DNA of 64,000 bases from Macrostomum lignano (Eukaryota): NCBI GenBank assembly GCA_002269645.1, contig NIVC01001539.1, positions 62,001-126,000 of the forward strand, read 5' to 3'. Positions within the stretch are counted from its first letter, which is position 1, and every line of letters starts with the position of its first letter. This document shows positions 15,173 through 45,600 of this stretch, piece after piece. The position numbers and the translations under genes were made by a program. The notes under the pieces were generated by a model, which saw only the letters and a list, made by a program, of their open reading frames with translations, was not told the origin of the DNA and did not search any database.

Positions 15173-15174
15173 AA

Positions 15175-16045
15175 TGGGGTGCCTACTATCTTGGAGTGCT
15201 TGCTATCTGGAGATGCGTGCTATCTGGGGGTGCTTGCTATCTGGGGGAATGCTTGCTATCTTGGGGGTTCTAGCTATCTGGGGGTGCTTGCTATTAGGTG
15301 GATGCTTGCTATCTGGGGTGCCTGCTATCTGGGGGTTCTTGCTATCTGGGGGTGCTTGCTATCTGGGGGTGCTTGCTATTAGGTGGATGCTTGCTATCTG
15401 GGGTGCCTGCTATCTGGGGGTGCTTGCTATCTGGAGATGCTTGCTATCTGGGGGTGCTTGCTATTAGGTGGATGCTTGCTATCTGGGGTGCCTGCTATCT
15501 GGGGGTGCTTGCTATCTAGAGATGCTTGCTATCTGGGGGTGCTTGCTATCTGGGGGTGCTTGCTATTAGGTGGATGCTTGCTATTAGGTGGATGCTTGCT
15601 ATCTGGGGTGCTTGCTATTAGGTGGATGCTTGCTATCTGGGGGTGCTTGCTATCTGGAGATGCTTGCTATCTGGGGGTGCTTGCTATCTGGGGGTGCTTG
15701 CTATCTAAGGGTGCTTGCTATTAGGTGGATGCTTGCTATCTTGGGGTGCTTGCTATTAGGTGGATGCTTGCTATCTGGGGTGCCTGCTATCTGGGGTGCT
15801 TGCTATCTAGAGATGCTTGCTACTTGGGGTGCTTGCTATCTGGGGTGCTTGCTATCTGGGGGTGCTTGCTATCTAAGGGTGCTTGCTATTAGGTGGATGC
15901 TTGCTATCTGGGGTGCCTGCTATCTGGGGGTGCTTGCTTGGAGATGCTTGCTATCTGGGGATGCTTGCTATCTAAGGGTGCTTGCTATTAGGTGGATGCT
16001 TGCTATCTGGGGGTGCTTGCTATCTGGGGGGTTGCTTGCTGTCCT
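15175..16045. repeat. 16-17-bp satellite (GGGGTGCTTGCTATCT), about 50 copies, inside H1
   Basis: Periodicity is directly visible. Confidence 0.95.
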
Positions 16046-16186
16046 GGGATATTTTTTTGCATTGCACTTCATTTGAGCAGTTTTTCTATTGTCTATGTGA
16101 AGGCTTTATTTGGCCGTCTTTTTGATACTTTTAGAGTGCCAGAGATTCTATCTAGATGCCCCCCATCGGGGGGCGAAGATTGCTAG

Positions 16187-19100: not shown

Positions 19101-20712
19101 ACACCATGTTAGACATTAAAAAAACCCCGAATCAAACATAAAAGAGCCACCATGTAGAACATAAAAGAGCCATCATGTCAAACATTAAAGAGGCACCATG
19201 TCGAACATTAAAAAGCCACCATGTCAAACATTAAAGAGCCACCATGTCGAACATAAAAAAACCACCATGTCCAACATAAAAGAGCCACCATGTCAAACAT
19301 TAAAGAGCCACCATGTCGAACATAAAAGAACCACCATGTCGAACATTAAAGAGCCACCATGTCGAACATTAAAAAGCCACCATGTCGAACATAAAAGAAC
19401 CACCATGTCGAACATAAAAGAGCCACCATGTCAAACATTAAAGAGGCACCATGTCGAACATAAAAAAGCCACCATGTCGAACATTATAGAGCCACCATGT
19501 CGAACATAAAAGAACCACCATGTCGAACATAAAAGAGCCACCATGTCGAACATAAAAGAGCCACTATGTCAAACATTAAATAGCCATTATGTCGAACATT
19601 AAAGAGCCACCATGTCCAACATATATGTGACTCCATGTTAAACATTAAAGAGCCGTCATGTCAAACATAACAGAGCCAGCATGTCAAACATAAAAGGACC
19701 ACCATGTCAAACAATAAAGAGGCACCATGTCGAACATTAAAAAGCCACCATGTTTAACATTAAAGAGCCACCATGTCGAACATTAAAGAGCTGCCATGTC
19801 GAAAATAAAAAAGCCACCATGTAGAACATTAAAGAGCCATCATGTCAAACATAAAAGAGCCACCATTTCAAACATTAAAGATCCATCATTACATTAAGGT
19901 GCCACCATGTCAAACATTAAAGAGTCACCATGTCAAACATTAACGAGTCACCATGTCAAGTATATTCGTGACTCCATGTCAACCATAAAAGAGCCACCAT
20001 GTCAAACATAAAAGAGCCACCACGTCAAACATTAAAGAGCCACCATGTCAAACATTAAAGAGCCACCATGTCAAACATAAAAGAGCCACCATGTCAAACA
20101 TAAAAGAGCCATCATGTTAAACATTAAAGAGCCACCATGTCAAACATAAAAGAGCCACCATGTCAAAAATAAAAGAGCCACCATGTCAAACATATATGTG
20201 ACTCCATGTCAAGCAGTAAAGAGCCACCATGTCAAGCAGTAAAGAGCCACCATGTCAAGCATAAAAAAGCCACCATGTCGAACATAAAAGAGCCCCATGT
20301 CAAACATTAAAGAGCCACAATGTCAAACATTAAAGAGACACCATGTCGAACATCATGTCAAACACTAAAGAGCCACCATAAAAGATACACAATTTCAAAC
20401 GTAAAAGTAAGCGTCATGCCAATTTTAAAGGAACCACTGTAGAGCTTAGGAAATTGTTGCACTAGCTACTTATTGTCTGGGGGATGCTTGCCATTTGGGG
20501 GATGCTTGCTATCTGGGGGATGCTTGCTATCTGAGGGATGCTTGCCATCTGGGGGATGCTTGTTGTCTTGGGATAATTTCTTTTTGCATTACACTTTATT
20601 TGAGCAGTTTGTCTGTTGTCTTTGTGAAGGCTTTATTTGGCTGTCTTTTTGTTACTTGAAGAGAACAGAGATTCTATCCAGATTTCCCCCAACGGGGGGC
20701 GAAGATTGCTAG
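16187..20712 (+). mobile_element. Non-autonomous Helitron-like element H2
   Basis: CTAG|TCTAATATACTAAAAATG junction. 3' CCCCC-AAC-GGGGG hairpin, then GAAGATTG-CTAG (20709-20712). Colinear with H1. Confidence 0.85.
16790..20380. repeat. 23-bp satellite (same family as in H1) inside H2, about 150 copies
   Basis: Periodicity is visible, with higher-order duplications. Confidence 0.95.
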
Positions 20713-21066
20713 TCTAAATATACTAAATCTCTAAGGTTTGTATGCTTGAATGAATGAATGTCCATAACGCTCTAGAGCGAGCAATTCTTCACCGATTTTG
20801 ATCGCGTTTTCGCCAAAAGATTTGTGATCAGCCTGGGATTGTATGGTTAAAATTTCTTGTATCTGCTTCAATGCTAAAGGGATTAAATATTCGAAAAACT
20901 GTTTTAAATGGCCTTTTTCAATGCAAATTTTATCAGCCAGAAACTTCACTGCCAATTTTAATTGATTGCGCCAGAGCCAACTGATAAGAAAACTCACTCC
21001 GCTCCACTTAAAGGGGGGCAATAAAAAAATTATTCTGGCTGCTGGCAGCCAGCTCTAATTAGCTAG
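20713..21066 (+). mobile_element. Short (354 bp) non-autonomous Helitron-like element H3
   Basis: CTAG|TCTAAATATACTAAA start, (GAAT)n tract, CCGATTTT. 3' hairpin CTGGCTG-CTGG-CAGCCAG (21035-21052), then CTAG at 21063-21066. Confidence 0.75.
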
Positions 21067-21667
21067 TCCTATATACTAAAAATGAAAATCTTGCTTGCTT
21101 GCTTGTAATCGATTAGAGAAAAAAATGGCTTAACCGATTTTCATGAGACTTGCACTGTTTGATCAGAAATTTTCCCGTGACGGTACATGCATCTTGGCTA
21201 AGAAATTGCTCCATGTTAAAGCGATTAAATATTCGAAAAACATGCTTTTTTGCAAAGGTCAAGCAAACTTTTCGACTTGAAATGCATTGTAAGAATGCTA
21301 GAGAAAAAACTGACTGGTTGAATTCTGATTCTGAAATAGATTGCATCATAACTGAATTGTAACTCTGACTTGAATTGAAAATGCAGTGTGGAAGCGTAGC
21401 ACCAGACTTGATTTAAATTGCGTAACCATATTGTTAACTGATACTGACTGACTGAGAAATTGATTATGTCATAACTGCCTCGTGTGATTTACTCCATGCT
21501 TGGAGTTTTGAAACTTATAATTATAAGTGCTAAAATTCATGTTATCAAAACGATGAGAGCTAGCCTAGAGGTAAACAGACTGACTGCTAAATGCAGGGAC
21601 GATGGTTCGAATTTTGAGAGAGTGGAATTTTTTTAATTAAAGCTTTTTAACACCAAGAAGAAAACTA

Positions 21668-24395
21668 AAAAATCATAGAAGCGTCATGTAAAAAATCATA
21701 GAAGCGTCATGTAAAAAATCATAGAAGCGTCATGTAAAAAATCATAGAAGCGTCATGTAAAAAATCATGGAAGCGTCATGAAAAAATCATAGGAGCGTCA
21801 TGAAAAAATCATAGAAGCGTCCTGCAGAAATCGTAGAAGCATCATGTAAAAAATCATAGAAGCGTCCTGCAGAAATCGTAGAAGCATCATGTAAAAAATC
21901 ATAGAAGCGTCCTGCAGAAATCGTAGAAGCATCATGTAAAAATCATAGAAGCGTCATGTAAAAAATCATAGAAGCGTCATGTAAAAAATCATAGAAGCGT
22001 CATGTAAAAAATCATGGAAGCGTCATGAAAAAATCATAGGAGCGTCATGAAAAAATCATAGAAGCGTCCTGCAGAAATCGTAGAAGCATCATGTAAAAAA
22101 TCATAGAAGCGTCCTGCAGAAATCGTAGAAGCATCATGTAAAAATCATAGAAGCGTCATGTAAAAAATCGTGGAAGCGTCATGAAAATATCATAGAAGCG
22201 TCATGTAAAAAATCATAGAAGCGTCATGAAAAAATCATAGAAGTGTCATGTAAAAAATCATGGAAGCGTCATGTAAAAAATCATAGAAGCGTCATGTAAA
22301 AATCATAGAAGCGTCATGTAAAAATCATAGAAGCGTCATGTAAAAATCATAGAAGCGTCATGAAAAAATCATAGAAGTGTCATGTAAAAAATCATGGAAG
22401 CGTCATGTAAAAAATCATAGAAGCGTCATGTAAAAATCATAGTAGCGTCATGTAAAAAATCATAGAAGCGTCATGAAAAAATCATAGAAGCGTCATGAAA
22501 AAAACATAGGAGCGTCATGAAAAAATCATAGAAGCGTCATGTAAAAATCATAGAAGCGTCATGTAAACAATCATAGAAGCGTCCTGCAGATATCGTAGAA
22601 GCGTCATGAAATAATCATAGAAGCGTCATGTAAAAAGCATAGAAGCGTCATGTAAAAAATCATGGAAGCGTCATGTAAAAATCATAGAAGCGTCATGAAA
22701 AAATCATAGAAGTGTCATGTAAAAAATCATGGAAGCGTCATGTAAAAAATCATAGAAGCGTCATGTAAAAATCATAGAAGCGTCATGTAAAAATCATAGA
22801 AGCGTCATGTAAAAAATCATAGAAGCGTCATGTAAAAATCATAGTAGCGTCATGTAAAAAATCATAGAAGCGTCATGAAAAAATCATAGAAGCGTCATGA
22901 AAAAAACATAGGAGCGTCATGAAAAAATCATAGAAGCGTCATGTAAAAATCATAGAAGCGTCATGTAAACAATCATAGAAGCGTCCTGCAGATATCGTAG
23001 AAGCGTCATGAAATAATCATAGAAGCGTCATGTAAAAAGCATAGAAGCGTCATGTAAAAAATCATGGAAGCGTCATGAAAAAATCATAGGAGCGTCATGA
23101 AAAAATCATAGAAGCGTCCTGCAGAAATCGTAGAAGCATCATGTAAAAAATCATAGAAGCGTCCTGCAGAAATCGTAGAAGCATCATGTAAAAATCATAG
23201 AAGCGTCATGTAAAAAATCGTGGAAGCGTCATGAAAATATCATAGAAGCGTCATGTAAAAAATCATAGAAGCGTCATGTAAACAATCATAGAAGCGTCAT
23301 GTAAAAATCATAGAAGCGTCATGTAAACAATCATAGAAGCGTCATGTAAACAATCATAGAAGCGTCATGTAAAAAATCATAGAAGCGTCATGTAAACAAT
23401 CATAGAAGCGTCATGTAAACAATCATAGAAGCGTCATGTAAACAATCATAGAAGCGTCATGTAAACAATCATAGAAGCGTCATGTAAACAATCATAGAAG
23501 CGTCATGTAAAAAATCGTAGAAGCGTCATATAAAAATCATAGAAGCGCCATTTAAAAAATCATAGAAGCGTCATGTAAACAATCATAGAAGCGTCATGTA
23601 AACAATCATAGAAGCGTCATGTAAACAATCATAGAAGCGTCATGTAAAAAAATCATAGAAGCGTCATGTAAAAAAATCATAGAAGCGTCATGTTAAAATC
23701 ATAGAAGCGTCATGTAAAAATCATAGAAGCGTCATGTAAACAATCATATAAGCGTCATGTAAACAATCATAGAAGCGTCATGTAAACAATCATATAAGCG
23801 TCATGTAAACAATCATAGAAGCGTCATGTAAAAAATCATAGAAGCGTCATGTAAAAATCATAGAAGCGTCATGTAAAAATCATAGAAGCGTCATGTAAAC
23901 AATCATATAAGCTTCATGTAAACAATCATAGAAGCGTCATGTAAACAATCATAGAAGCGTCATGTAAACAATCATAGAAGCGTCATGTAAAAAATCATAG
24001 AAGCGTCATGTAAAAATCATAGAAGCGTCATGTAAAAATCATAGAAGCGTCATGAAAAAATCATAGAAGCGTCATGTAAAAATCATAGAAGCGTCATGTA
24101 AAAATCATAGAAGCGTCATGTAAAAAATCATAGAAGCGTCATGTAAACAATCATACAAGCGTCATGTAAACAATCATAGAAGCGTCATGTAAACAATCAT
24201 AAAAGCGTCATGTAAACAAGCATAGAAGCGTCATGTTAACATAGAAGCGTCATGAAAAAATCATAGAAGCCTCATATATAAACTAATGAAAGTGTCATTT
24301 AAAAAATTAAGAAGCATCATGGAAGAATAAAAGAAGCGTAACGTAAAAATCAAAAGAAGCGTCATGTCAGACATAAAAGAAGTGTCATGTAAAAA
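21668..24395. repeat. 22-23-bp satellite (CATAGAAGCGTCATGTAAAAAAT) inside H4, about 120 copies
   Basis: Periodicity is directly visible. Confidence 0.96.
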
Positions 24396-28695: not shown

Positions 28696-29008
28696 GTTGC
28701 TCATCCGGCTGTTTTAATGAAGCTTTACTCTGTCCTGACAGAAGTTAGTAAATTTGATAAGGAACATTAAGTTTAAATTCTAAAGCACCCATATATTTAG
28801 CATTAGAAAGAACTTTCTCTCTCTGTAGCAAAAGTGCATCCTTGAGGTCAAGTCCAATAAATTACCAACCTGGCCATCTCTCTGATAGTTTTGTCCAATA
28901 AGTGACTAGGAAACAAATATAATCAGTGTGGCATAACACACAACTGACTCCTGGTCTACACTCTCTAGACTGCTACTTATAACTTTAGCCAAAACTGTTT
29001 TGTTCTTT

Positions 29009-30003
29009 TGAAGTACAATGGGGTTTCTTCCCGGTTTAGGCCCTTGCGGATTACCTTCAGACTCGGGCCTCTTCAGTGGGAAGTTCTCTCAACTCTCTCA
29101 GTAGCGTAGGTAGTGCTGCCACCAGTTCCTTCAGGTCTCGGCCTTCGGTGAGGTGAGCTTTCCGTCGGAACGAAATAATGAAGTCAACGAACACAGCACG
29201 ACGTGCAGATTTGCAGCTCAACGTATAAGGCGTCTCGTCAGCAGCACCTGCCGGGCTTGGATGGTACAGGGAGGGCTGAGTTAGCCTCTCGTAGACTTGG
29301 GTTGGTTTGGTCGGGTCTCAGTCGGAGCAACAGGAACAGAATCAATGTGCGCAAAGACTCGGACACTCGGGACTTAGTCACACGCGGACGTAGAACTCGA
29401 GGTTGAACAGAAGGAAGACTCCTTGACGGAAACAAGGGGAGAGGGCTCCTATTTATAGCCGGGAAATTCCCACGCTCCAGACCTCGTGACTTGTTCTATT
29501 TTTAGAACTGACGTCACTCGAGAGTCTCAGGCAGGGTTCAAGCGCGCGGAAGACCTCGTGACTTGTTCTATTTTTAGAACTGACGTCACTTGAGGGTCCC
29601 CGGCAGAGTACACATGGCTGTGACTCAGTTGCTAATTTTAGCAACATGAGTCACTCCTCTCCTTAGGAAAGGGAGGGGTCCGAAAGCATGTGACTCACCC
29701 GGTAAACAGGGCCAACGAGTGCAGTAAACATGTTTACTGCACTTTAAGACTCAAAGAACGCAAGAGCTGTCATGTGACTTGCTCACAAGACAGGGAAAAC
29801 GGGACGGGAGCGAAACAGAGACAGCCAACAGTCGAGAGACTGAGGGCTGAGAACGGAAACGCAGCAGGGCGGAAAGGACACGGGGGCAACAGGCAAGCGA
29901 AAGGAGGGCGGGAAGCTGACCAGCGGCAGACAGCAACCCAGGGCGGAGGCGAGGGAACAGCTGACAAGGGCGACGCCTAACCATAAACTAGCGGCTCACT
30001 ACA
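29009..30003 (-). repeat. 3' LTR (995 bp)
   Basis: By eye it differs from the other LTR by 3 single-base indels and 1 substitution. Confidence 0.95.
29450..29697 (-). promoter_or_regulatory. LTR promoter/enhancer: TATA box, kappaB-like site, two MEF2+CRE modules, three AP-1 sites
   Basis: TATAAATA (-, 29450-29457); GGGAAATTCCC 29461-29471; CTATTTTTAG 29496-29505 and 29568-29577; TGACGTCA 29509-29516 and 29581-29588; TGA(C/G)TCA 29621, 29647 and 29691. The same set occurs in the 5' LTR. Motif matches only. Confidence 0.6.
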
Positions 30004-30015
30004 CTCTCCCCGTTC
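30004..30015 (-). other. Polypurine tract
   Basis: GAACGGGGAGAG immediately precedes the 3' LTR on the minus strand. Confidence 0.75.
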
Positions 30016-30645
30016 AAATAAAGAGGCGGAGTGAAGGCGGAGCGCGCCTTTATTTAAAAGGTAAACTGCAGAAAATAAAATTTTGATTGGCAAAAAGGTG
30101 GTAACTTTGGCAGAATAGCAGAGAAGGGGCTGGGTTAGGCCCATGATTGGAACCCTAAACGCGTGTGCGGGGGCGCCTGCCCGCTTGAAGTCAGCGCCTA
30201 AATACCGGGTTGCACAAATAACTGCAGCGCCCGTAAAAAGGATGGCAAATACCGGTAATGGGACAAAAGAAGCCACAGTGGGCTATAAAAGCGCGGCTGG
30301 GCGAGGCCGTAGCTCGTACTACCGCCCCATACGGTATTAATGGAGTCACACCAAAGCATGAAGGGGGGCGCCAGCCCCATGATACGCAAGAGGCGCCTAA
30401 ATATGGGGGATGCGGGAGTTCATGCAGAGCCCCGGGGGAAAAGGCAAAAGACTGGCCACAAGGGCACAAATGGTTGATGCCGAAAATGAGCACAAAGGAC
30501 AAATGCCGCTCATATACGAAGAGGGGAAGTAAACGGCGCGACTGCGCAAAAATTCGCACGTGCAGCGCAGGGCTGCTGAGGGCGCTAGCAAAAGGGCGCG
30601 ACGAAAATTGGAGTCACCTGGGGTTTGTCAGTCCAGGGTTTAAAG

Positions 30646-32619
30646 TTACTCTTGCCGGTCACAGTGGCGCACGAGATCCGGGACCTCCGGCGTCCGACCC
30701 GCCATCTGGGCCGCAATTAGCCGGGCGACGACGCGGGCCGTCTCGGGATGCGGCGGACGTCTGAGCGTCGGTGCCGCGAGCTGGGCGGCCTCGTCCATTA
30801 GTCGCTGCCGATCCTCATCCGTAAGGGCGCGGAGACAGGCCCATCGCGGCCAGTCCGCGAGGGTTGGCAGTCGGTTCAATTGGGCGGCAGCAGTCAGCTG
30901 TTGGGCGATAAAATACACCGCCTCAATATAGCGGTTAACGGCAGCTTGAACAGCTGGCGAAAGGCCCGGTGGCGACGATCCGTTGTCCTCGGACTCATTG
31001 TCTGATGAGTCTGGGTCGCGTGGCTCCGGCGAGTTGGGCGGTGCCGGAGGGACTGCGTTGTTTGTAGGCAGGGCCTGTCGCAGCTCGGTGGTTAGCTCCT
31101 GCAGGGTGGTCGCCTCCGAATTGTTGCCGTCAGTCTGGCAGGCGGCCTCTACTCTGCCTGGGGCCACGGGGTTCTCCGGCTCGGGAACAGTTGGCAGCCA
31201 GACTTGGTCGTCGCGGGGCGGTGAAGCCGGTTCCAGTCGGAGCTCTGGCCCCGCTATTCTGCAAAGAAAAACTGAGTTGGGGGCGGGCTGCGCCGACGGT
31301 TTGCTGGCGTCATCCGACGACTCTGGCCGGGCGTCCCGAGTTTCGATCTTAGTCGATGTTGGCGTCGGCTGCCGGGGCGCGAGCTGTTGTCGAAGCTCCG
31401 CTAGGCCTTCGGCGACGACTTCGGCGGCCGACCCACCGGCCGGTTGGTACTTAGTAGTCGGGCTTAGCCCCGGGGAGTCCGGCTCCGTCAAGTCAATGAA
31501 GACGGGCGTCGGCGGTCGGGGACGCTGGCGTCTCGATCCTTGAGCCTGATCAGCCGTCGCTGCGGGCTTAGGTCTCTCGCTGCTGTGGCCCGCGGCCTCT
31601 CTAGCCTGATCCTGCTCGACTTGCCAACGGATCTCAGCGATTCCTTGAGAGATTCCGTCGGTCGATGCAGTGGCTGCCAGGCTCGATGATGGGGCGGCCG
31701 CAATACGGCGAACAACGGGCGGGTTCTCCGAGGGCGTCCCCTCGGCACCGGCGGTCCGGTTGTGCCCCGGCCGCTGTCGCCTGCGGCGCCTAGGACGTGG
31801 CCGGCGTACCTCTAGTGGCGGTGACGGGGCTCTCTCCTCCTGAGGAAGGGTGAGCCGTAGCCGGGGAGGGATTCGGGCAACCTCCCGGTGTTCGCCCGAC
31901 TCAAATTGGCCGCCGGCTGCCCCAATGGGCGGACCTGCTTCGGCCTCGTGCCGCGAGCGGCGATGGCGATTCTCCGCCGACGGCGTGCGCTCAGTGCGCT
32001 TGGCGGTACGGCGAGAGTGCATTTCTGCGCTGAAATGCGTTTCGATTTGTGCGCGGATGCGGGCGGTGCGGCTAACATAAGTCTTAGCCTTAGGATTAAT
32101 AATCAGCCTCTCAGGCTGCCTACGATTCCTAGCCGGCCTACCGGCATCTACAATTCCTACTGACGCTTCCACCGGAGTGGTGCATAGCGACGGCCCAGGG
32201 GTCTGGACCACAGAAAAGGCAGCACTGGGGGCGGGAGCAGAAACGGGAGGAAAAGAAACAGCAGGCATAGACGCATCAAGAACAGGCTCATGCAAATGAC
32301 ATTCACCATACGGCACTGGCTCACGCCGAAGTGCACTTGCCTGGTTCGCTGGTGTCGTGACCGGTCCACCTCCTGGCTGCACCTCCGGGATCGCCAAAGG
32401 CCGGAAGTGCCATCGGAAGGCCGGCCTTGCGTCGTAGCCGTCATCATCGTCATCGTCGGGGTCGTCCTGGTCGTCCTCGGGATCGGCGTCAGGGTCGCGG
32501 GTCCTGCGCCGTCGGGACGTCGGGCGGTCGCCGACGCTTCTTCGGTTTGTCGACTTCAGGATCGGAAGTCCTCGTGTAGTCAGCGTCGGGCACGAGCAGA
32601 AGGTTCCGGCGATGGACGA
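30646..32619 (-). CDS. Long C-terminal extension of gypsy integrase (includes ORF 30646..32397)
   Basis: Same frame as the integrase ORF and open from 32619 to 30646. VVHRRNL lies in the -1 frame just after TAG 32620. The region has an acidic tract and the gypsy tail motif RPARNRRQPERL, followed by about 485 more codons. Confidence 0.65.
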   Translation of the reverse strand, partial: SSIAGTFCSCPTLTTRGLPILKSTNRRSVGDRPTSRRRRTRDPDADPEDDQDDPDDDDDDGYDARPAFRWHFRPLAIPEVQPGGGPVTTPANQASALRREPVPYGECHLHEPVLDASMPAVSFPPVSAPAPSAAFSVVQTPGPSLCTTPVEASVGIVDAGRPARNRRQPERLIINPKAKTYVSRTARIRAQIETHFSAEMHSRRTAKRTERTPSAENRHRRSRHEAEAGPPIGAAGGQFESGEHREVARIPPRLRLTLPQEERAPSPPLEVRRPRPRRRRRQRPGHNRTAGAEGTPSENPPVVRRIAAAPSSSLAATASTDGISQGIAEIRWQVEQDQAREAAGHSSERPKPAATADQAQGSRRQRPRPPTPVFIDLTEPDSPGLSPTTKYQPAGGSAAEVVAEGLAELRQQLAPRQPTPTSTKIETRDARPESSDDASKPSAQPAPNSVFLCRIAGPELRLEPASPPRDDQVWLPTVPEPENPVAPGRVEAACQTDGNNSEATTLQELTTELRQALPTNNAVPPAPPNSPEPRDPDSSDNESEDNGSSPPGLSPAVQAAVNRYIEAVYFIAQQLTAAAQLNRLPTLADWPRWACLRALTDEDRQRLMDEAAQLAAPTLRRPPHPETARVVARLIAAQMAGRTPEVPDLVRHCDRQE

Positions 32620-33610
32620 CTAGTTCGTCTCGTCTAGCTCTCGGGTTGGCAGTCTCCGTCGTATCTTGTAGACGACCTCGCCCTTGGGCTCGACGACTTC
32701 GTATAAGGCTTTGCGAGGTCGATGAAATTTCGCCGCTTCGTCCGGTTTGAGCACCGGGTTGTTGAGGAAGACCAGATCGCCGGGTTGGAGCTTCTTGGCG
32801 GCGGGCAGGTTCGAGTAGTGCTCGTCTCGCAGTTGTTGGTGCAGGTGCAGGCGCTCCTTGGCCAGCTCAGTCGCCTCGTCCAGGCGACACTGGAAGTCTT
32901 TGACGTAGTCGGGCAGATCGGCGTACTCAGGCAGCTTCTTCAGCGCGTTGTCGATCGGGAGTCGGAAGTCACGGCCGAACACCAGGTAGTGAGGCGTGAA
33001 ACCTGTCACCGGGTGGACGCTGGAGCGGAGAGCCATCAGGCAGGCTGGGAGGTAGGTATCCCAGTCGTTGTGGTTGCGCTCAAGCAGACAGGTGAGGACC
33101 TTCTTCAGTTGTTTGTTCAGATTCTCGACTTGTCCATTGGAAGCTGGGTTGTATGGTGTTGTTGTCGTATGCCGAATGCCAAACAGGTCGCAGAACTTCT
33201 TGAAGGCCGAACCGGTGAAGTTGGTGCCTTGGTCGGTGTGGATCCAGCATGGTACACCGAACTCGGGGATGAAGCGCTCCTGCAGAAGCTTGATGACTGT
33301 TTTGGCTTTCTGGTTTCTCATCGGGTAGGCGAATGGATACTTCGACGTCGCATCGCACAAGGTCAGGATGTAGCGGTTGCCGCTCTTGCTCTTCTGCGCG
33401 ATTGGTCCTACTACATCACAGTGTATTCTACCCAGAACTTCGCAAACTGGAAAGCTCTGGACCGGAACTCTCTCTCGCCGTCGCGATTTACTTTCAAGGC
33501 AGGTGCGGCACTTACTGATGAAGGTCTTGGTAGTACGGGCTAATCCGGGTCTCCAGAACCGTTCTCGTAGCCGCAGTAACGTCTTCGTCTCGCCGAGGTG
33601 TCCACACAGT
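32620..33610 (-). CDS. Integrase (HHCC zinc domain and DDE core)
   Basis: GHLG...RERFWRPGL...CRTC, IHCDVVGP, CDATSKYPFAYP, IHTDQGTNF, NGQVENLNK. One frameshift near 33605 joins it to the upstream Pol frame. Confidence 0.93.
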
Positions 33611-36600
33611 GGGAACTGTGGAGCTCCTGGAGCACCTGGGCGTCAAGGGCCTCAGGCAGAACAACCTTGGGCGGCTGCTGTCCATCAGTCAGATCAATCA
33701 GCAGCAGGCCGTTGTCCTCCTGCAGGTTCTCGTAGTATCCGAGCAGATTCCGCTGCTCCTTAGTCAGTCGCAACCGGGCGTCGAACTCAGGCTTCGGGGC
33801 TTCGTTCTCGACCAGGTTGAGCACGTAGCTGATGGCTCGGTCAGCGCGTTGGGCGTCAACGAACTGTTGGCGAGTCATCGGCAGCTTCAGAAAATCAGTG
33901 AGCACAGCGCGGCATGGCTGAGGGGTCATGACTCCCGCAGTCTCCGCTTTAATGGCTCCAGGTCGATCACACGGCACCGTCTTGTCGGCGTCAGGATTAG
34001 GTCGCTCCGAGGGACTTTGTCTCACAACGTCGGCGTACGTCCGTTGATCTAGAATCGAAGTTCTCTTCATCGCTCTCATGACAGAAAAATCCGCAGATGG
34101 AGCAGCGCGCATGCCTCCACTGCATAGCCCAGGCGACTCTTGGCTGTAGGGCGGGACGCAACACGTGAAGCACGCCTCGTCGCTGGCAGCCGTAGCCGTC
34201 GGCTCAATCGTAGTCAAAATTGGGTGAGTCTTCTCCTGCACTGGGCGGTGTCGCAAAGGGGGACTCGACTTTCCGCACAGGCGATGAGCAGCTGTCTGTC
34301 GGCCCGGGGGACAGAGCTTCGACCTTGCAGCTGGCGCGAGATTCTGGCCTCTGTCAACACGGCGAGAAATCTCAGCGAAAGGCTCGGCGGGGTTGTAGTT
34401 AAATTGCTTGCCTGGAGTTGCGTTGCGGGCCGTCATCAGAAGGGCTGCTGGTGCGGTGGCCTTTGAATCTTGGTCCGTGGGCGTCTCCAGAGTCCGAGAC
34501 CTGTAGTCTTGGGCGTCGTCAAGGAGGTCTGTGTCCACAGTGGCCTCAAGGTCTTCGTCCAGGTTGGTCTCCAAGTAGCGGCAGTCGGCGTGGGCATCGT
34601 TGCAGAGGGCTGTTGTCACAGTGGCCTCTGAGTTGTCGTCCAGGCCGAACTCCAGGCGTTGACTGCATCGGTGGGCGTCGTGCTGGAAGGCTGCTGGCGC
34701 GGTGGCTTCCAGGTCTTCGTCCAGGTCAGTCTCGGCCTCCAAGGAGCGAGAGTGGACAGTCTTCGGGAGGGCTGCTCTGGCAGTGGCCTCGGGTGTCGCG
34801 TCCAAGTCCGTTTCCAGGAAACGTCGGCGCTCAGTCTTGGGGCTGTCGCCGGCACCGGGTTGGGCTGCAGAACCGGGTGGTTCAAGGAGTCGGCCATGCT
34901 CGAAGGTGATCGGTGGTGTCTCCGGTCTTCTTGACAGGGCGTCGGCGTTGACGTGGTCCTTGCCTTTGCGGTGGTTGAGCTGGAAGCGGAACTCGCTTAG
35001 GCGTTCGATCCAGCGGCCTAAAATACCTGTGGCCTGAGTCTGGTTCAGTAACCACAGTAAGGCCCGATGATCGGATCGAACTTCAAACTTCTTGCCAATT
35101 AAATAATGACGGAAATGTCGCATAGCGTCCACAATTGCAAGCAGCTCTTTCTTCGTGACCGTGTAGCGCTTCTCAGGATCGCGAAGTTTACGGCTAAAGA
35201 ATGCAATTGGACGTTCGACGCCGTCGGATTGCAGTTGTCCAAGGCAAGCGCCTATTCGAATATCAGAGGCATCCGTGTCGAGGACAAACTTCACAGCAGG
35301 ATCAGAATTAAATTCAGGCAGAGCGAGAACTTCAGTAGAACACAATTTCTTCTTCAAAGTGTCGAACGCTAACTGATGCTCGGGAGTCCAATGCTGCCGC
35401 AGGCTGCCAATGTCCTTTCGCGTCAGGGCATGCAGCGGCGCAGCCACTCCAGCGTAGCCGTCGACAAACTTGTGGTAGTAATTGGCGAGGCCTAGGAATT
35501 GTCTCAGTTGAGTAACGGACTGTGGCACGGGCCAATCACGGATCTGCGCAATCTTGTCCTCACAGGTCTTCAGGCCGTCGGGAGTCACGACGTGACCTAA
35601 ATAATGCAGCTCCTTGAGGAACAAATGACACTTCTTCGGTTTCACTTTGAGGTTGGCTGCGATGATGCGCTGGAGTACAGTTCGCAATTATCCAGCTGTT
35701 CCTCAAAGTCACTGAGTGCACCACGATGTCGTCCATGTAGCCAAGCGCAGTCTTTGGCGTCAGGCCGTCCAGGAGCTTATTGATGCAACGCTGAAAGCTG
35801 CCGGGACTATCGTGGAGACCCATCGGTAGAACGTTAAAACAGAATTGGCCGCGGTCGATTACTGAGAACGCCGTCAGGTGCTGGTCGCAGTCCGCGCAGC
35901 GGGATCTGCCAGAATCCTTGAGCAAGGTCCAGGCTGGAATACCACTGAGCACCACGAAGCTTCGCGAAGGTTTCCTGGATGTGCGGCAGCGGATACGGGT
36001 GATACACACACCTGTCGTTGAGAGCTCTGAAGTCGTGGACTAGTCGGATGTTGCCGTCCTTCTTGGGCACGATGAGCATTGGCGAATTGTAGCTCGAGTA
36101 GGCAGGGCGAATGATGTGCTTCGCCAGCATCTCGTCTAGCAGGGCGTCGAGCTTGTCCTTCAGATGAGGCGGGATTCGGCGCGGTGGTAGCGCAACTGGT
36201 GTCCGGTCCTTCAAGATGATCTCGTGGGTCACCAGGTGAGTCAGGCCGGCGTCTAGCGGTGCTTGGAGAAGGCCGCTTGACATTCGACTAGTAGATCTCG
36301 CACTCTTTGATGTTGTTCTTTGGACAATTCGCTGTTGATCTCGACTTCATCTAGCCATGCTGTGCTGGACTCTTCAGAGTTCTTCGGGAGATGTCGCACT
36401 TCAGGTTCTGGCGTCTCGCTCAAGTACATCAGGTCGGCAGTTCGGAGTGGCGTCGCGACACCAACACGGATACCGGCTTGCAGAAACACTTCGCTGTCAG
36501 CGGTGTTGACGACCTCAATGTAGCCGCGACCTTCAGGCATCGTCATCAGAGCAGGCGCTGCCTCCAGAGCGTTGCAGCTGGGATGCAGCCTCGACTTAAC

Positions 36601-37143
36601 CAGCTCGACAATTGATGGCGATCCTCGATTCTCGGAATGGCCGTCATCCAATCTGACGGGAAGCAGCGCTGAACTTCTAGGCGGCAGGGTGCACTTCTCG
36701 GAGGTGTACACTCGGCAGGTTTGAAGCTCACGACGCGAATAACGAACAGGGATACACGTGCCATTGTTGAACGTTAGCATTCCTTGAGCGAAGTCCAAGT
36801 TCTGGCAGTGCTCTCGCATAAACGATACGCCAAGCAAATTTTCACAATCGGAGACCGTGACGAGGAATTCGGTGTCCGCGACGACATCACCAAACTCCAC
36901 GGGATGGTCACCTTACAAGCAAGTGGGAGCTGCGTCCCATCATACATAGTTACGCAATCGGGATAGCATGCGATATAATACAACGAGGCATCCGGCGTCT
37001 AATAGCGGCCCAGGTTGACGAACCAAGAAGTTTTTCCGGCTGCCGCTGTCTAGCAAGAAAGGGACCTCTCGACTCGCAACTCGACCTGTGACGTACGGAT
37101 CGGCCTCACGCGCATGGATTTTTTGATTCGGGGAGGTGTCCAC
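33540..37143 (-). CDS. Gypsy Pol (protease, RT, RNase H, long linker), broken by several single-base frameshifts
   Basis: FLLDSGS (PR); SSYNSPMLIVPKKDG, SLDLAQGFWQIP, LPMGL and GYMDD (RT); LDTDASD, ELLAIV, VRSDHRAL and NADALSR (RH), spread over ORFs 36940..37143, 36253..36900, 35834..36283, 35560..36009 and 33540..35687. Confidence 0.92.
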
Positions 37144-37162: not shown

Positions 37163-38390
37163 TCACTTACTGACGAGCGACTGTCGGACTGGGCATTGGC
37201 GCCTGCACAGCCGACATCTCTTCTTCTGGTGACCTCTCGGAGTCTGCCAAGTAGCCTGGGCTTGGACCTCGCGGAGGGCGGTGCCGTTGTCGCTCTCCGC
37301 CTGGCCGTTTCCCTGGTTCTGGCGCATCGGGCACTGGGTGTTGCGATGACCGGGCTGTCCGCAGCTATAGCAGATTATAGCTCTCTTTGGCGGGCTGGCT
37401 ACCTGCTGTTGGTCACGCTGCACCAGGTGATCCAGCATTCGCTGCTGCTTCTCAATCAAGTCGGTTAGAGTCAGTAAGGCTTGGGCGGTGACGTCGGGTT
37501 TCGGGTCGCCGTCCTCCTCCCCGTCCAACATCCTAACCGGGGGTTGAGCAGATCGGTGCGCCAATTCTTTGGCGCCTTCTAGTCGTCGTAGCTCTCGAAT
37601 CGCAGCAAGAAGATTGTTCGGGCGAACCCAGTACAGCCGTTCACGCAGATCTGGAGTCGTCCGGATACCAGCAAGAAATTGATCAGTAATCTCCTTCTCG
37701 CGGTCTTCAGGATGCATTCGGGGATATGCACGTTCACCCAGAGTTCTCAGGGCGTCAGCGAACTCTTCTGCTGACTCATTCTTGCCTTGTTGACGACGTC
37801 GCAACAGTTCTCGATACTCATCAGCACCACCATGACGGGCAAATCGCTCAATCAGACGTTGCTTGACCTCCTCGTAGCTGGCGAAACGCGGAAGATTCAT
37901 ACCAAGCAAGGCTGGATACGCAGTAGCCAAATCAAGACTCGCGATGAGGTGTTGCTTCATCTCGAACGGGTCGACAATGCGCTCCATCTCGCAACGCTGC
38001 TCGAACGCGGCAAGCCAGACATGAATGTCCTGACTTGGAGTAAACTTCACAATTTTAACTTGTTTACTCACGGGCCGCTCCATCTGCTGCTGCAGAGCTG
38101 CCATCATGGTCCTCACGTCCTGGTGCGTGATGTTCCGGCCGATGTTGTCCAGGCCTTGCAGAAGCTCGTCTGGCGGGTCGTCGGACACGTCGCTTCTGGC
38201 ACCTTGCCTCGGCGTTGGCTGCTGACCAAAGTCGTTGATCGCTGCTGCTGCTGCGGCGGCGTCTCCGGCCGCAGGCCTCGAACTGCTGATGTGCTGATCC
38301 AGCCGGCTGCTGCACCGGCTTTCGTCTCGCTCGTTGAACATGTTGAACTCGTCGTAGTCGCTGGCCGAAGTCGTTCTCGAAAGAGCGGTT
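37163..38390 (-). CDS. Gag with retrotransposon-gag domain and CCHC zinc knuckle
   Basis: W..AFEQRC...YEEVKQRLIERF...QGKNESAEEFADAL...DQFLAGI and CYSCGQPGHRNTQC. The true start is uncertain because the track's start at 38443 lies inside the LTR. Confidence 0.88.
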
Positions 38391-38412
38391 GTCTTGGGTG
38401 TGTCGTAGTCGG

Positions 38413-38432
38413 ATCTCACCGCTGCGTCACCA
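38413..38432 (-). other. Primer-binding site, tRNA-Leu-like
   Basis: TGGTGACGCAGCGGTGAGAT, 1 nt from the 5' LTR. It resembles the complement of a tRNA-Leu 3' end (TGGTGGCAGCGGTGGGAT) with 2 extra bases. Confidence 0.7.
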
Positions 38433-38433
38433 G

Positions 38434-39427
38434 TGAAGTACAATGGGGTTTCTTCCCGGTTTAGGCCCTTGCGGATTACCTTCAGACTCGGGCCTCTTCA
38501 GTGGGAAGTTCTCTCAACTCTCTCAGTAGCGTAGGTAGTGCTGCCACCAGTTCCTTCAGGTCTCGGCCTTCGGTGAGGTGAGCTTCCGTCGGAACGAAAT
38601 AATGAAGTCAACGAACACAGCACGACGTGCAGATTTGCAGCTCAACGTATAAGGCGTCTCGTCAGCAGCACCTGCCGGGCTTGGATGGTACAGGGAGGGC
38701 TGAGTTAGCCTCTCGTAGACTTGGGTTGGTTTGGTCGGGTCTCAGTCGGAGCAACAGGAACAGAATCAATGTGCGCAAAGACTCGGACACTCGGGACTTA
38801 GTCACACGCGGACGTAGAACTCGAGGTTGAACAGAAGGAAGACTCCTTGACGGAAACAAGGGGGAGAGGGCTCCTATTTATAGCCGGGAAATTCCCACGC
38901 TCCAGACCTCGTGACTTGTTCTATTTTTAGAACTGACGTCACTCGAGAGTCTCAGGCAGGGTTCAAGCGCGCGGAAGACCTCGTGACTTGTTCTATTTTT
39001 AGAACTGACGTCACTTGAGGGTCCCCGGCAGAGTACACATGGCTGTGACTCAGTTGCTATTTTAGCAACATGAGTCACTCCTCTCCTTAGGAAAGGGAGG
39101 GGTCCGAAAGCATGTGACTCACCCGGTAAACAGGGCCAACGAGTGCAGTAAACATGTTTACTGCACTTTAAGACTCAAAGAACGCAAGAGCTGTCATGTG
39201 ACTTGCTCACAAGACAGGGAAAACGGGACGGGAGCGAAACAGAGACAGCCCACAGTCGAGAGACTGAGGGCTGAGAACGGAAACGCAGCAGGGCGGAAAG
39301 GACACGGGGGCAACAGGCAAGCGAAAGGAGGGCGGGAAGCTGACCAGCGGCAGACAGCAACCCAGGGCGGAGGCGAGGGAACAGCTGACAAGGGCGACGC
39401 CTAACCATAAACTAGCGGCTCACTACA
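38434..39427 (-). repeat. 5' LTR (994 bp)
   Basis: Direct repeat of 29009-30003 with TG/CA ends. Confidence 0.95.
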
Positions 39428-39574
39428 CTTTCTTTCTTTGTCAGTTCTTTTAACACGAGACATGGGACTGGAGAAAGTTTTTTCTTTGCAGATAGCAAGG
39501 AATGACAATCAATATTCTCAAATCAAGGCTCAGTAGTCGTAACTATCGATGAGGCAGCAGTTCTGCTCGTACGA

Positions 39575-40110
39575 CTTACTTGACTTAGCTGCAGGGTGGT
39601 CCGTAGACACAGCGTGGAGGCGAGGGTCGCCCATTCCGCTAGCCCCTGAAGGCCCGCAGGCAGGCAGAGGCGTGTGGGGCCGGTCAAGGTGGTCCGCCGG
39701 TGCGTCCTGCAGCGTGATCTTCCGTGGGGAAGAAAGTGGCCCGTCTTGTGGCCTGAAGGAACTGCTGGATGCATGAGCCATGTGGGATGCTGTCGGTCTG
39801 GCAGACCTCGTCAATGGAGGGGTTCGGCCCGAGGTAGCGTAGCCGTAGAAAGGGCAGTGACAAACAAAATGCTGAGCATCTTCGTTGTCGTACTCGCAGA
39901 AAGGGCCAAGTTCACTCTCGAGGTCGCCTCGGATGAAGCAGTGCCTGGCGAGGTAACCATGGCCGGTAAAGGTCGTGACAAGGGCTCGAATATCCTTTCG
40001 GTTTTGGTTCAGAAGGACGTTCTTGAGCCAGAGGGGCGCGGTGCGTGATTGCCGGCAGTTCTGGGCGCCCGTCCATCTGTCCCTGTGAAGCTGCTCGTCA
40101 AGGACCATTA
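39575..40110 (-). mobile_element. 3' fragment of a LINE (I/LOA/R1-like C-terminal CCHC region) with (AAGT)n tail
   Basis: W..AQNCRQSR...RKDIRALVTTFTGHGYLARH...FCEYDNEDAQHFVCHCP. Tail AAGTCAAGTAAG ends at 39575. 12-bp direct repeat CTGCTCGTACGA at 39563-39574 and 40489-40500. Confidence 0.78.
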
Positions 40111-40729
40111 GGAACACTTCGTTATATAAGGACGTAACACTCAATTCGTGTAAAAATAGTTGATGGCCGATTTCAGTTCTCGTATACATTAGTGAGATAG
40201 ACGAATTGCATGATTTTCAACATAATGTGCTGTTTGCATAAGCCTATGGCTATTGATTTCCGAAATTTTGCAGTATGTAACCAGAAACACTTAGCTAAAT
40301 TATATTATTTTGTGGTTTTTAGTCATATTATTAGGTTATTTACCGTTTTTTACATTACTTATGACTAGGCTAGGCCTATTACTAAGGACAAATGTTTATC
40401 GACTTGGATGGGAACCTAGTAATAGATACTTTATAGACCTATAGACCTATTTGATTTCTAGCTAGTCATAACCCTAACTGTCTAACTGCTGCTCGTACGA
40501 GAGCTCTCGGGCCAATTTTCGTTCACAAGCCGCAAAAACAGCAAAAGAAAATAGTAAAACAACGATATGCCTGACTGGCGGTTAAAATTGGTCGGAGAAA
40601 GTACTCCAGTACATGTAAGTTTCTATATGTGCGAGTCAACAAACTTAAGGGGAAGAGAATTGAAGTTTTTGCCGCACTACAGAGTCTACAGAATCTTTCA
40701 CAATCACCAGCTGCTTGACGTGTACAAAC

Positions 40730-42058: not shown

Positions 42059-42664
42059 CATTCCTCCACTCTCATCCTCTAATCTCTTACACTTACACCC
42101 TCCTCCAGCCTCCCACACCCTCCTCCAGCCTCCCACACCCTCTTCCAGTCACTCACACTCTCCTTCACTCTCTTTCAAGAACTGTAATACATTAAATATT
42201 ACTGCTGCTCAAGGGCTTCCACACCGTACCAAGAATCATAAGCATTAACCACAGCAAGGCAGTGTCTTTTTAACGCGGGCCAAGCAGAAAGCACAAACCC
42301 CGGTAAAACAGCATTCAGGCAGGTCCCTGCCCGTTGGGTCTGGGGCCAGCCTATGGTTTAGTCCACCAACAGTCAAATTTCATGCCTTCCCCGGGGTCAG
42401 TCCCGCCAACTATTCATACTTCACCCTTCCCTCACTCCTCGTACAGCGAATTTAAATTTCTAGGAAAATATGCAGCAGCAGAAGATAGCAACTGCGTACT
42501 CTACGCGTATGTACATTCTGTCTACAGTCTAGACTGATAAACTACCACGCACGCAGTAAAGTGAGGTTTTCCAGGATATCACTAGCCCCGTTGAGCCTCT
42601 AATTCTATATGGTGATATAAAAATTTTTACTTGGGGAGCCCGTATGACTCGGCTGAGTTAGACA

Positions 42665-45600
42665 ATGTCCACCACTGCTGCTTGGAATTTGCTCTGCCAC
42701 CGGCTCGGCCGTCAGGGCGAGTCTCAGCTGCGCGCCGAGGCCGCCCAGGCGCCGGACGCCACCGACCGGGATGTCCGGCGACGTCTGGCCGAACTGCTGC
42801 CAGACGAGCGGGCCAGGCTGACGCTGCGGCCGGACAGCGGCGACCATGGCCTGACGGGAGCTCACCTGCTGGCCGACCTGGGACTGGCCTTGACTCTGCA
42901 GCAGGTGCTGCAGTCCGTCGCTGACGCCCGCTGTCCGGCTGCCGCTTACGCCGACGCCAAGGGCCGGACGCCACTGCATTGGGCGGCCAGAGCCGGACAC
43001 TGGCCGGTCTGCAAAGTGCTGCTTGACTCTGGAGGGTGCGGCAATTTGGATTCTAAAAAAATTGATTCAGTAGCCAACTCATTGTGTGATCCCTTCCCGT
43101 CTCCCTGCCTCTCTTCTCCCCTCCCCGCCTCTCTTCTCCCCTCCATGCCTCTCTTCTCCCCTCCATGCCTCTCTTCTCCCCTCCCCGCCTCTCTTCTCCC
43201 CTCCCCGCCTCTCTTCTCCCCTCCATGCCTCTCTTCTCCCCTCCCCGCCTCTCTTCTCCACTCCATGCCTCTCTTCTCCCCTCCTCGCCTCTCTTCTCCC
43301 CTCCCCGCCTCTCTTCTCCCCTCAATGCCTCTCTTCTCCCCTCCCCGCCTCTCTTCTCCCTCCCCGCCTCTCTTCTCCCCTCCATGCCTCTCTTCTCCCC
43401 TCCCCGCCTCTCTTCTCCCCTCCCCGCCTCTCTTCTCTCCTCCATGCCTCTCTTCTCCCCCCGCCTCTCTTCTCCCCCGCCTCTCTTCTCCCCTCCCCGC
43501 CTCTCTTCTCCCCTCCCCCTCTCTTCTCTCCTCTATGCCTCTCTTCTCCCTCCCCGCCTCTCTTCTCCCCTCCCCGCCTCTCTTCTCTCCTCCATGCCTC
43601 TCTTCCCTTCCCCGCCTCTCTTCTCCCCCCGCCTCTCTTCTCCCCTCCATGCCTCTCTTCTCCCCTCCCCGCCTCTCTTCTCCCCTCCATGCCTCTCTTC
43701 TCCCCTCCCCGCCTCTCTTCTCCACTCCATGCCTCTCTTCTCCACTCCATGCCTCTCTTCTCCCCTCCCCGCCTCTCTTCTCCCCTCCATGCCTCTCTTC
43801 TCCCCTCCATGCCTCTCTTCTCCCCTCCCCGCCTCTCTTCTCTCCTCCATGCCTCTCTTCTCCCCCGCCTCTCTTCTCCCCTCCCCGCCTCTCTTCTCCC
43901 CTCCATGCCTCTCTTCTCCCCTCCCCGCCTCTCTTCTCCCCTTCCCCGCCTCTCTTCTCCCCCGCCTCTCTTCTCCCCTCCCCGCCTCTCTTCTCCCCTC
44001 CCCGCCTCTCTTCTCCCCTCCATGCCTCTCTTCTCCCCTCCCCGCCTCTCTTCTCCACTCCATGCCTCTCTTCTCCCCTCCTCGCCTCTCTTCTTCCCTC
44101 CATGCCTCTCTTCTCCCCTCCATGCCTCTCTTCTCCCCTCCCCGCCTCTCTTCTCCCCTCCCCGCCTCTCTTCTCCCCTCCATGCCTCTCTTCTCCCCTC
44201 CCCGCCTCTCTTCTCCACTCCATGCCTCTCTTCTCCCCTCCTCGCCTCTCTTCTCCCCTCCCCGCCTCTCTTCTCCCCTCAATGCCTCTCTTCTCCCCTC
44301 CCCGCCTCTCTTCTCCCCTCCCCGCCTCTCTTCTCCCCTCCATGCCTCTCTTCTCCCCTCCCCGCCTCTCTTCTCCCCTCCCCGCCTCTCTTCTCTCCTC
44401 CATGCCTCTCTTCTCCCCCCGCCTCTCTTCTCCCCCCGCCTCTCTTCTCCCCTCCATGCCTCTCTTCTCCCCTCCCCGCCTCTCTTCTCTCCTCTATGCC
44501 TCTCTTCTCCCCTCCCCGCCTCTCTTCTCCCCTCCCCGCCTCTCTTCTCTCCTCCATGCCTCTCTTCCCTTCCCCGCCTCTCTTCTCCCCCCGCCTCTCT
44601 TCTCCCCTCCATGCCTCTCTTCTCCCCTCCCCGCCTCTCTTCTCCCCTCCATGCCTCTCTTCTCCCCTCCCCGCCTCTCTTCTCCACTCCATGCCTCTCT
44701 TCTCCACTCCATGCCTCTCTTCTCCCCTCCCCGCCTCTCTTCTCCCCTCCATGCCTCTCTTCTCCCCTCCCCGCCTCTCTTCTCTCCTCCATGCCTCTCT
44801 TCTCCCCCCGCCTCTCTTCTCCCCTCCCCGCCTCTCTTCTCCCCTCCATGCCTCTCTTCTCCCCTCCCCGCCTCTCTTCTCCCCTTCCCCGCCTCTCTTC
44901 TCCCCCGCCTCTCTTCTCCCCTCCCCGCCTCTCTTCTCCCCTCCCCGCCTCTCTTCTCCCCTCCATGCCTCTCTTCTCCCCTCCCGCCTCTCTTCTCCAC
45001 TCCATGCCTCTCTTCTCCCCTCCTCGCCTCTCTTCTTCCCTCCATGCCTCTCTTCTCCCCTCCCCGCCTCTCTTCTCCCCTCCATGCCTCTCTTCTCCCC
45101 TCCCCGCCTCTCTTCTCCCCTTCCCCGCCTCTCTTCTCTTCTCCCCGCCTCTCTTCTCCCCTCCATGCCTCTCTTCTCTCCTCTATGCCTCTCTTCTCTC
45201 TATAATGCCTCTCTCTGACACAAAAGCTGATAACAAACTCCTATTTAAAGGAGACTGCTAGAAAACTAACGTAAACGCAGAAGCAAACTGGCACCCCTGC
45301 AGGTGCTGCATGACCGCACTGGACAGCTGCGGCCGCACACCGCTGGACCTCGCCGTGTCTGGCGGACACGCCGAACTTCTGGAGGCGGCATTCAACCAAA
45401 ATGACAGCTGGCGCCGATTTTTATCGCGTCAGCGCGACTTCAAAGGCCGAACGGCGTTGCACGCGGCGTGCCGGGCAAAATCGACTTCTAAGGGCGACGG
45501 CTGCAGCGCGAAGGTGCTGGCGCTGCTGCTGCGCCGGCTGGAGGCGCCGGAGAAGCTGGCGCGGTTCCTCGACGAAGCGCGCGGCTGGCCGGCCGGATTT

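Follow-up and report, generated by a model that had tools for sequence, protein, structure and literature searches.

Chromovirus integrase bears a C-terminal chromodomain, and chromodomains and the Ty5 targeting motif tether integration complexes to chosen chromatin. In other LTR retrotransposons, additional sense open reading frames (ORFs), or env-like ones, are known in the interval from pol to the 3' LTR (PMC7264820). In the C. elegans element Cer1, the ORF that follows integrase is described as part of CERV, a protein made from a spliced, leader-bearing RNA (PMC3315495), and CERV is reported to be required for export of Cer1 genomic RNA (PMC10309623). For animal LTR retrotransposons, roles are known for few accessory proteins, CERV being the clear example in the literature that we searched. 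On the host side, Panoramix of the Drosophila PICTS/SFiNX system is portrayed as a disordered nuclear protein, dimerised by the dynein light chain LC8 through TQT motifs, that acts in SUMO-linked transposon silencing (PMC7861614).

The element that we compare with these systems occupies the minus strand of a 64-kb stretch of Macrostomum lignano DNA, called the window in the following. It is a complete Ty3/Gypsy LTR element with LTRs, target duplication, primer site and polypurine tract, in which gag is followed by protease, reverse transcriptase (RT), RNase H and integrase; the Pfam domain order, zinc knuckle, RT, RNase H, HHCC and rve, is that of Gypsy. The copy is young, its LTRs being 99.6% alike, and a 4-bp target duplication, CTTT, bounds both of them (39428-39431 and 29005-29008). 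The integrase domains were assigned by Pfam on a sister copy (L002). The parts of the element are as follows.

38434..39427, minus strand: 5' LTR (TG...CA), 99.6% alike to the 3' LTR
38415..38432, minus strand: primer-binding-site-like sequence, beginning TGG, after the 5' LTR
37163..38497, minus strand: gag frame; zinc knuckle above the Pfam cut-off, Retrotrans_gag match weak
33540..37100, minus strand: pol with protease, RT and RNase H, plus a long linker that separates RNase H from integrase; several frames in the window copy
32489..33700, minus strand: integrase with HHCC, rve core and C-terminal VHRRNL motif; single-base indels break the window copy
32104..32488, minus strand: ordinary integrase tail, an acidic tract and RPARNRRQPERL
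30004..30015, minus strand: polypurine tract
29009..30003, minus strand: 3' LTR

The five best relatives of the integrase are named M. lignano proteins, and the copies fall into three integrase groups, A (which includes the window copy), B1 and B2. Some copies may be assembly duplicates; the host has been described as a hidden tetraploid (PMC12801592). In the supplements to that article, which cover six heat-shock-element families only, three short motifs of the element were absent, and the heat-stress tables there contained none of the identifiers of the M. lignano records that bear the C-terminal domain described below.

Several observations concern the element and its surroundings at large. 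The RNase H-integrase linker (window ~33900-34900, minus strand) spans about 440 aa and contains degenerate repeats; it measures 126-199 aa in three related pol proteins. At the U5 end of both LTRs, many copies (L002, L004, L022, L062-L064, L087-L096, L108, L110 and others) carry 1-3 tandem units of 63-86 nt, in each of which a tRNA-type primer site is combined with some 40 nt of leader and a fresh LTR-like end; the unit motif has 214 exact matches genome-wide. The window copy lacks such a unit, and its primer site is a variant. Its 5' LTR promoter region (38880-39165, minus strand) has a TATA box at 38882, together with what we take to be a pair of CRE-type sites, both with a MEF2-like neighbour, as well as three AP-1-type sites and an inverted FoxO-like pair within a 26-nt palindrome; a canonical heat-shock element was not found in the LTR of the window element. 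Four G000 contigs (C1903, C2137, C3668 and C4250) hold pairs of copies 7.9-9.4 kb apart, which fits tandem elements sharing an LTR. Elsewhere the window contains long arrays of one 23-nt tandem repeat (13350-24300), short TTAGGG runs near 25220 and, labelled by eye, a LINE-like fragment (39530-40216) and ankyrin-repeat-like host exons broken up by simple repeats (42662-50767, plus strand).

An earlier note on this DNA had singled out an ORF that runs on past the integrase. The stop-to-stop frame, 30646-32619 on the minus strand, indeed comprises 657 codons, or 583 aa counted from the first TTG, and continues for 485 codons after PERL, as had been claimed. The integrase-tail features named there are present (acidic tract at 32434-32475, RPARNRRQPERL at 32104-32139), as are RRPRPRRRRRQRP at 31768-31806, VFIDLT at 31486-31503 and the helical block at 30649-30963. 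The statement that this ORF is in frame with integrase holds for its phase, which is that of the core, but in the window a stop at 32620-32622 separates the two. Here the VHRRNL motif lies in a different frame (32489-32866), and comparison with L002 revealed single-base indels near 33613, 32649, 32516 and 32482; over its first ~46 codons, the ORF as listed is therefore off-frame. The integrase-tail fusion rests on natural sister copies, not on the window copy. Among 17 sister loci, all bearing the WPRW block, 8 are uninterrupted from the integrase core to WPRW, making integrase and tail one ORF, and in these intact copies the frame is conserved past the RxxRxRxxPxRL motif with no early stop. 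In 18 of 25 loci no stop interrupts the frame between HRRN and its end, and 4 of these 18 have YMDD in that frame as well. On the opposite side, only 14 of 24 indels between tails are multiples of three in a codon-blind alignment. The in-frame fusion is retained across all three integrase groups, and a 3-nt indel just upstream of the acceptor discussed below distinguishes groups. In related M. lignano pol proteins the reading frame closes 8 and 28 residues beyond the RxxRxxPxR motif; the additional ~470 aa are therefore peculiar to this element family. Since the fusion frame has been kept, the fused form may be the working one.

Beyond what the earlier note contained, we observed an acceptor-type hexamer with an ATG (32035-32020), a TQT-type motif and a cassette-like pattern of divergence. 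The features of the tail are these.

32030..32035, minus strand: YTNCAG splice-acceptor-type hexamer, 7 nt before a conserved ATG, at the 5' border of the cassette
30646..32022, minus strand: accessory ORF in the frame of pol; 458 aa when counted from the conserved Met, for the most part disordered
31573..32022, minus strand: first 150 aa, rich in Arg and Ser-Pro, with RRPRPRRRRRQRP at 31768-31806 and a helix predicted at 31615-31653
31486..31503, minus strand: putative SIM-type (SUMO-interacting) motif VFIDLT, by pattern, followed by acidic/Ser-Pro residues
31129..31149, minus strand: TQT-type motif EAACQTD, predicted by pattern and model to bind LC8
31027..31104, minus strand: amphipathic helix LQELTTELRQAL and PPNSP
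30649..30963, minus strand: all-helical C-terminal domain, ~100 aa, AlphaFold2 pLDDT 92, under purifying selection
30154..30408, minus strand: 3' UTR hairpin TATTTAGGCGC...GGCGCC, in two copies (30353-30408 and 30154-30209)

Past the conserved Met, the tail behaves as a separate, exchangeable gene cassette with an acceptor of its own. Copies L073, L075 and L076 are 92-99% identical to the window copy in gag-pol; in the LTR the identity is 88-95%, whereas over the stretch that begins at the conserved Met and includes the 3' UTR it is 52-73%. Between copies, identity taken from the acceptor to the polypurine tract drops to 52-66%. Resolved in 100-nt identity windows, the borders of the divergent block fall near 32050 and 30100, the 3' border being ~100 nt upstream of the polypurine tract. 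In the pairs L002/L012, L063/L064 and L066/L071, synonymous difference amounts to 0.01-0.03 in integrase versus 0.58-0.78 in the tail. On the integrase tree, clades composed of copies that share a tail, or have sister tails, are rejected (p-AU 1.5e-6 and 1e-4; 12 rows, with groups set by tail type after the first tree had been inspected), and tail versions still largely cluster by integrase group, with L073 as the exception. The tail ORF and the 3' UTR are inherited together. This pattern suggests that old tail versions were recombined onto a homogenised pol. In several pairs the stretch just upstream of the cassette (window 32036-32499, minus strand) shows lower synonymous divergence than the integrase core, e.g. 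0.03 vs 0.14, which hints at nucleotide-level signals or recent homogenisation.

A multi-copy subfamily of integrase group A (L027-L030) has no tail: it lacks both acceptor and ATG and reaches a stop 10 codons later. The tail is thus dispensable for spread. Tail loss in L027 may or may not be derived (p-AU 0.093). About ten more matches belong to the same subfamily, and multi-copy tails with internal deletions also occur, either from just past the SIM or from integrase to the SIM (L013-L016, L007-L008).

Deeply diverged versions sitting on near-identical pol, with purifying selection within each, are also what would be expected if the separate protein were a self-limiting or competition factor, each version blocking or excluding other copies, by copy-number control or as interference groups, and so keeping many versions in circulation; the joint inheritance of ORF and 3' UTR and the multiplication of the tail-less lineage agree with this. 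Ty1 p22, however, has a Gag-like part, which the tail protein lacks, no type-specific target was seen, and the conserved 3' UTR element is common to all types including the tail-less one. We regard such a factor as improbable.

The 5' border of the cassette coincides with the acceptor, TTTCAG at 32035-32030 in the window, with the ATG from 32022. YTNCAG followed by 6-7 nt and ATG occurs in 26 of the 28 haplotypes that carry the upstream anchor block, the two exceptions being a decayed copy without the ATG and the tail-less subfamily. The N of the hexamer is T, C, G or A (encoding Phe, Ser, Cys or Tyr) and the other five letters are constant; because the variable letter changes the residue and the others stay fixed, the constraint is on nucleotides. 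Of 23 YTNCAG hexamers in the element, the border site is the single one with an ATG at +7. In M. lignano, [T/C]TNCAG is given as the top motif at acceptors of spliced-leader trans-splicing (PMC8629364).

Four public protein records contain the C-terminal domain, all from group B1 and all letter-identical to translations of genomic loci. One begins two positions past the acceptor (P0044, partial, acceptor+2), two at the Met (P0041 and P0043) and one a codon past it (P0042, partial), even though the frame stays open for 554-1228 codons upstream of these starts and offers another Met 12 codons back. The M. lignano annotation is reported to have cut transcripts at mapped trans-splice sites (PMC5730564), and the four records probably derive from that trans-splice-cut annotation. 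Met-start proteins of other tail types, including that of the window, were found in 0 of 10 exact look-ups. The spliced leader is described as ending in AUG (PMC8629364, PMC12582326); joined at the acceptor, this AUG would be out of frame with the tail and would open a short upstream frame of 8-24 codons, or 69 in one tail type. In four presumed-RNA contig sets, one contig crosses 32030 unspliced, and the position was absent among the 15 joints and 24 loose ends listed, where contigs show presence, not absence, for which reason we give this result no weight. On the sequence at hand, we infer both trans-splicing of the tail RNA and a function for the tail. For the 5' end of the tail, a trans-spliced RNA is our tentative choice, possible but short of probable; a tail without any separate RNA seems somewhat unlikely, a cis-spliced RNA is doubtful, and an internal start site more doubtful still.

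Motifs along the tail were surveyed in 14 tail types, with patterns chosen after the alignment had been seen. The first 150 aa contain 24-33 Arg and numerous Ser-Pro pairs in all types. The earlier note had proposed an NLS-like motif here; the basic sequence is present, but a nuclear localisation signal is one option, the whole Arg/Ser-Pro-rich third being basic. Its proposal of a SIM-like motif fared well, since the motif is kept in very diverged tails, in 11 of 14 types and beyond shuffles (0.2% per tail). The published SIMb pattern reads (P/I/L/V/M)-(I/L/V/M)-D-L-T (PMC3395311). The strict form, with V, I, L, M or P first, occurs in 6 of 14 types, and F, Y or C comes first in 5; the window version is F-I-D-L-T and lies in a predicted disordered region. 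Among the exceptions, the motif is degenerate in L021, frame-shifted in L077 and missing from L073, which contains two SUMO-acceptor-type sites, IKRE and VKAE.

A [TICV]QT motif was found in 13 of 14 tail types (chance 11% per tail), as strict TQT in 8 and as CQT in the window; TQT is documented as an LC8 anchor motif (PMC7861614). When host LC8 was modelled with window residues 279-311, the score was 0.62, versus 0.02 for the best of 3 controls, on a scale whose mark is reached by 51/78 solved and 2/108 mismatched pairs (eukaryotes 39/65 and 2/126) and is uncalibrated for peptides. At least 93% of contacts are common to the runs, the partner has a pLDDT of 51, and the contacts (288-299) surround the CQT; the score may measure likeness to solved LC8-peptide complexes and not binding. 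PPx[S/T]P was present in all 14 types (chance 13% per tail). In the 3' UTR, the hairpin recurs in 11 of 11 UTR types checked, the tail-less one included, with 6 pairs, 2 of them with changes on both sides, and might serve as a packaging or export element; folding of the whole UTR was no better than that of shuffles (z -1.3 to 1.8).

The tail ends in a helical block, as the earlier note had predicted, which was modelled with confidence as an all-helical domain and which has no family match in our searches. AlphaFold2 run on 24 natural rows of the domain returned pLDDT 92.2, pTM 0.85 and six helices, and a model of the whole 458-aa tail was mostly disordered, with three additional helices besides the domain. 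In the species' own genome, 128 candidate places were scored against the final 110 aa, and 91 of them match, with identities as low as 27%; two distant versions used as queries gave 81/104 and 70/102, largely the same places as the first set. Twenty distant places were fetched, of which 19 have integrase within 10 kb, 16 have RT-RNase H 92-99.6% identical, and the twentieth, with no integrase nearby, carries the acceptor block.

The domain is under purifying selection. Its dN/dS is 0.06, 0.08, 0.08 and 0.11 in the four window-group pairs with correctable dS. The nearest pair gives 0, and six pairs at greater distance give 0.24-0.60; of the 16 pairs in the set, five are saturated. The disordered part has dN/dS of 0.2-0.6, and no tail region shows a value >1, as positive selection would produce.

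Outside the genome, 1.84 billion representatives were searched with a profile, which matched 3 proteins, each an M. lignano record of the same element family; two metagenome matches to the domain profile, of 3 bits each, were rejected. For the C-terminal domain, nothing clear came from Pfam (best E 0.006, scattered), NCBIfam or a PDB sequence search (best E 0.16), and the ESM Atlas search gave no usable match. Foldseek with the domain model yielded weak helical matches only (best E 2.8 in PDB, 0.97 among viral models), and the best match in VIA wide, Z 6.3 with rmsd 3.4 over 103 aligned, is in the range of common helical arrangements. Word-index searches, which are less sensitive, found none for the tail alignment, and one record returned only itself. 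These results do not establish a new fold; the ~100 aa are a candidate new helical module.

One might still take the tail for a captured piece of a host gene, or for neutral read-through into the 3' UTR, with no role in the element; it is largely low-complexity and disordered, and dispensable in one subfamily. Against this stand the domain dN/dS of 0.06-0.11 and the retention of the tail motifs at saturated synonymous divergence, which itself counts against neutral read-through. Nor did the 20 distant places, 19 with integrase and the twentieth with the acceptor block, include any host donor. This reading, which we consider very improbable, has already been largely refuted.

A position after pol and before the 3' LTR, an acceptor of its own and swapping between copies are all behaviours of env genes, and in these respects the tail resembles env. 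Yet its N-terminus is basic, most of it is disordered, and it has no signal-like or transmembrane stretch, as the earlier note had maintained in setting it apart from env. The best 19-residue hydropathy is 0.81 in the window's type and 0.75-1.68 across tail types, falling inside the amphipathic domain. An env-like entry protein is therefore the least credible of the readings weighed here, and we give it hardly any weight.

The suggestion in the earlier note of a targeting module in the manner of chromodomains leads to another alternative, that the tail has its role only within integrase, as a tether holding the integration complex on selected chromatin, with the SIM reading SUMO-rich chromatin, LC8 aiding transport or dimerisation, and the versions differing in target. 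In its favour, the fusion is in frame in all three integrase groups and is placed after the integrase C-terminal motif, and a nuclear tether is compatible with the basic region and the SIM. It leaves unexplained the acceptor conserved at the nucleotide level, the invariant Met, the cassette border and the starts of the records. Moreover, the flanks of tail-bearing and tail-less copies are alike. Over 2.5 kb, 29 tail-bearing and 11 tail-less copies did not differ in GC (0.43/0.42, p 0.89), CpG (p 0.51) or tandem repeats (p 0.67), a coarse test of sequence content and not of chromatin state, and these flanks revealed no common insertion target, only seven scattered short shared repeats. Resemblance to chromodomain targeting itself did not hold up: no Pfam chromo match was obtained, the model is all-helical, and the flanks are undifferentiated by this coarse sequence test. 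We consider a pure tether unlikely.

The reading that we favour, tentatively and without calling it probable, is that the tail is a cassette swapped as a block, fused to pol and likely also trans-spliced on its own, which encodes an LC8-dimerised, SIM-bearing nuclear factor that keeps the element's RNA expressed and exported. The host spliced leader would join at 32030, so that a protein of 350-470 aa is made from the next ATG; the tail protein would thus be made alone as well as being present as a pol fusion. The Arg/Ser-Pro third would then carry it to the nucleus and onto RNA. There, LC8 would dimerise it, and the SIM might dock on SUMOylated chromatin or on RNA-processing factors, allowing it to counter silencing or nuclear retention at the locus of the element or on its nascent RNA. 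Because the genomic RNA would contain an unpaired acceptor, expression and export would need to be controlled, as in Cer1. Many old versions would persist through selection for variety in the tail protein while recombination homogenises pol. An anti-silencing role of the tail is plausible. In a bolder form, the element would hijack leader trans-splicing to express a counter-defence protein that mimics the SUMO/LC8 silencing factors, with a library of swappable versions engaged in an allelic arms race; this we think slightly less likely than a tether.

The literature that we searched, with an earlier classification paper and Repbase-type entries outside its scope, contained no description of the domain or the cassette, and in the main text of PMC12801592 the words "ORF" and "splic-" were absent. 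The element family offers a second, independent case of an accessory protein, in a transgenic, RNAi-ready stem-cell model. Natural controls come with it, since nearly identical pol sequences bear many tail versions and one subfamily has no tail. Two questions thereby become testable: do retrotransposons of animals encode proteins that counter silencing dependent on SUMO, and do they express a downstream gene by means of the host's trans-splicing?

How, then, does the tail compare with the known systems? As in chromovirus integrase, an extra folded domain ends a Gypsy pol, but the tail domain has no PF00385 match, is all-helical, lies 480 aa downstream and comes with its own acceptor and Met. 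Rex is a retroviral export factor of the Rev type. Like Rev and Rex, the tail is Arg-rich and, as we propose, is translated from a spliced RNA that derives from the 3' region, with a possible structured RNA nearby (for Rev, see PMC10309623); it differs in being 3-4x longer, and the nearby 3' UTR hairpin also occurs in tail-less copies. Inspection of the tail by eye found no clear export signal. The likeness to Panoramix, as far as the latter is described in PMC7861614, lies in the motif set alone (predicted disorder, a TQT-type motif and a link to SUMO, which in the tail is putative), and Panoramix is a host protein that silences whereas the tail is encoded by the element.

With the additional sense ORFs of LTR retrotransposons outlined in PMC7264820, the tail shares a conserved coding region after pol and before the 3' LTR that has no homologues outside the family. 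In contrast to those, it is fused in frame to pol, lacks a transmembrane segment, resides in an animal host and bears defined short motifs. [quoted passage not shown] CERV needs proline-directed phosphorylation, and the tail retains PPx[S/T]P. In CERV, cis-splicing joins the ORF to gag exons, and the protein contains an H domain, an M domain with a Cys loop and a G-protein-like G domain; counterparts of these domains were not seen in the whole-tail model, which has one helical domain and isolated helices. By description, the tail is unlike CERV in its apparent start at the acceptor, its mostly disordered chain with SIM and TQT and a single helical domain, and its swappable versions. As extra 3' ORFs are known and CERV sets a functional precedent, the tail cassette is a variant on a known theme.
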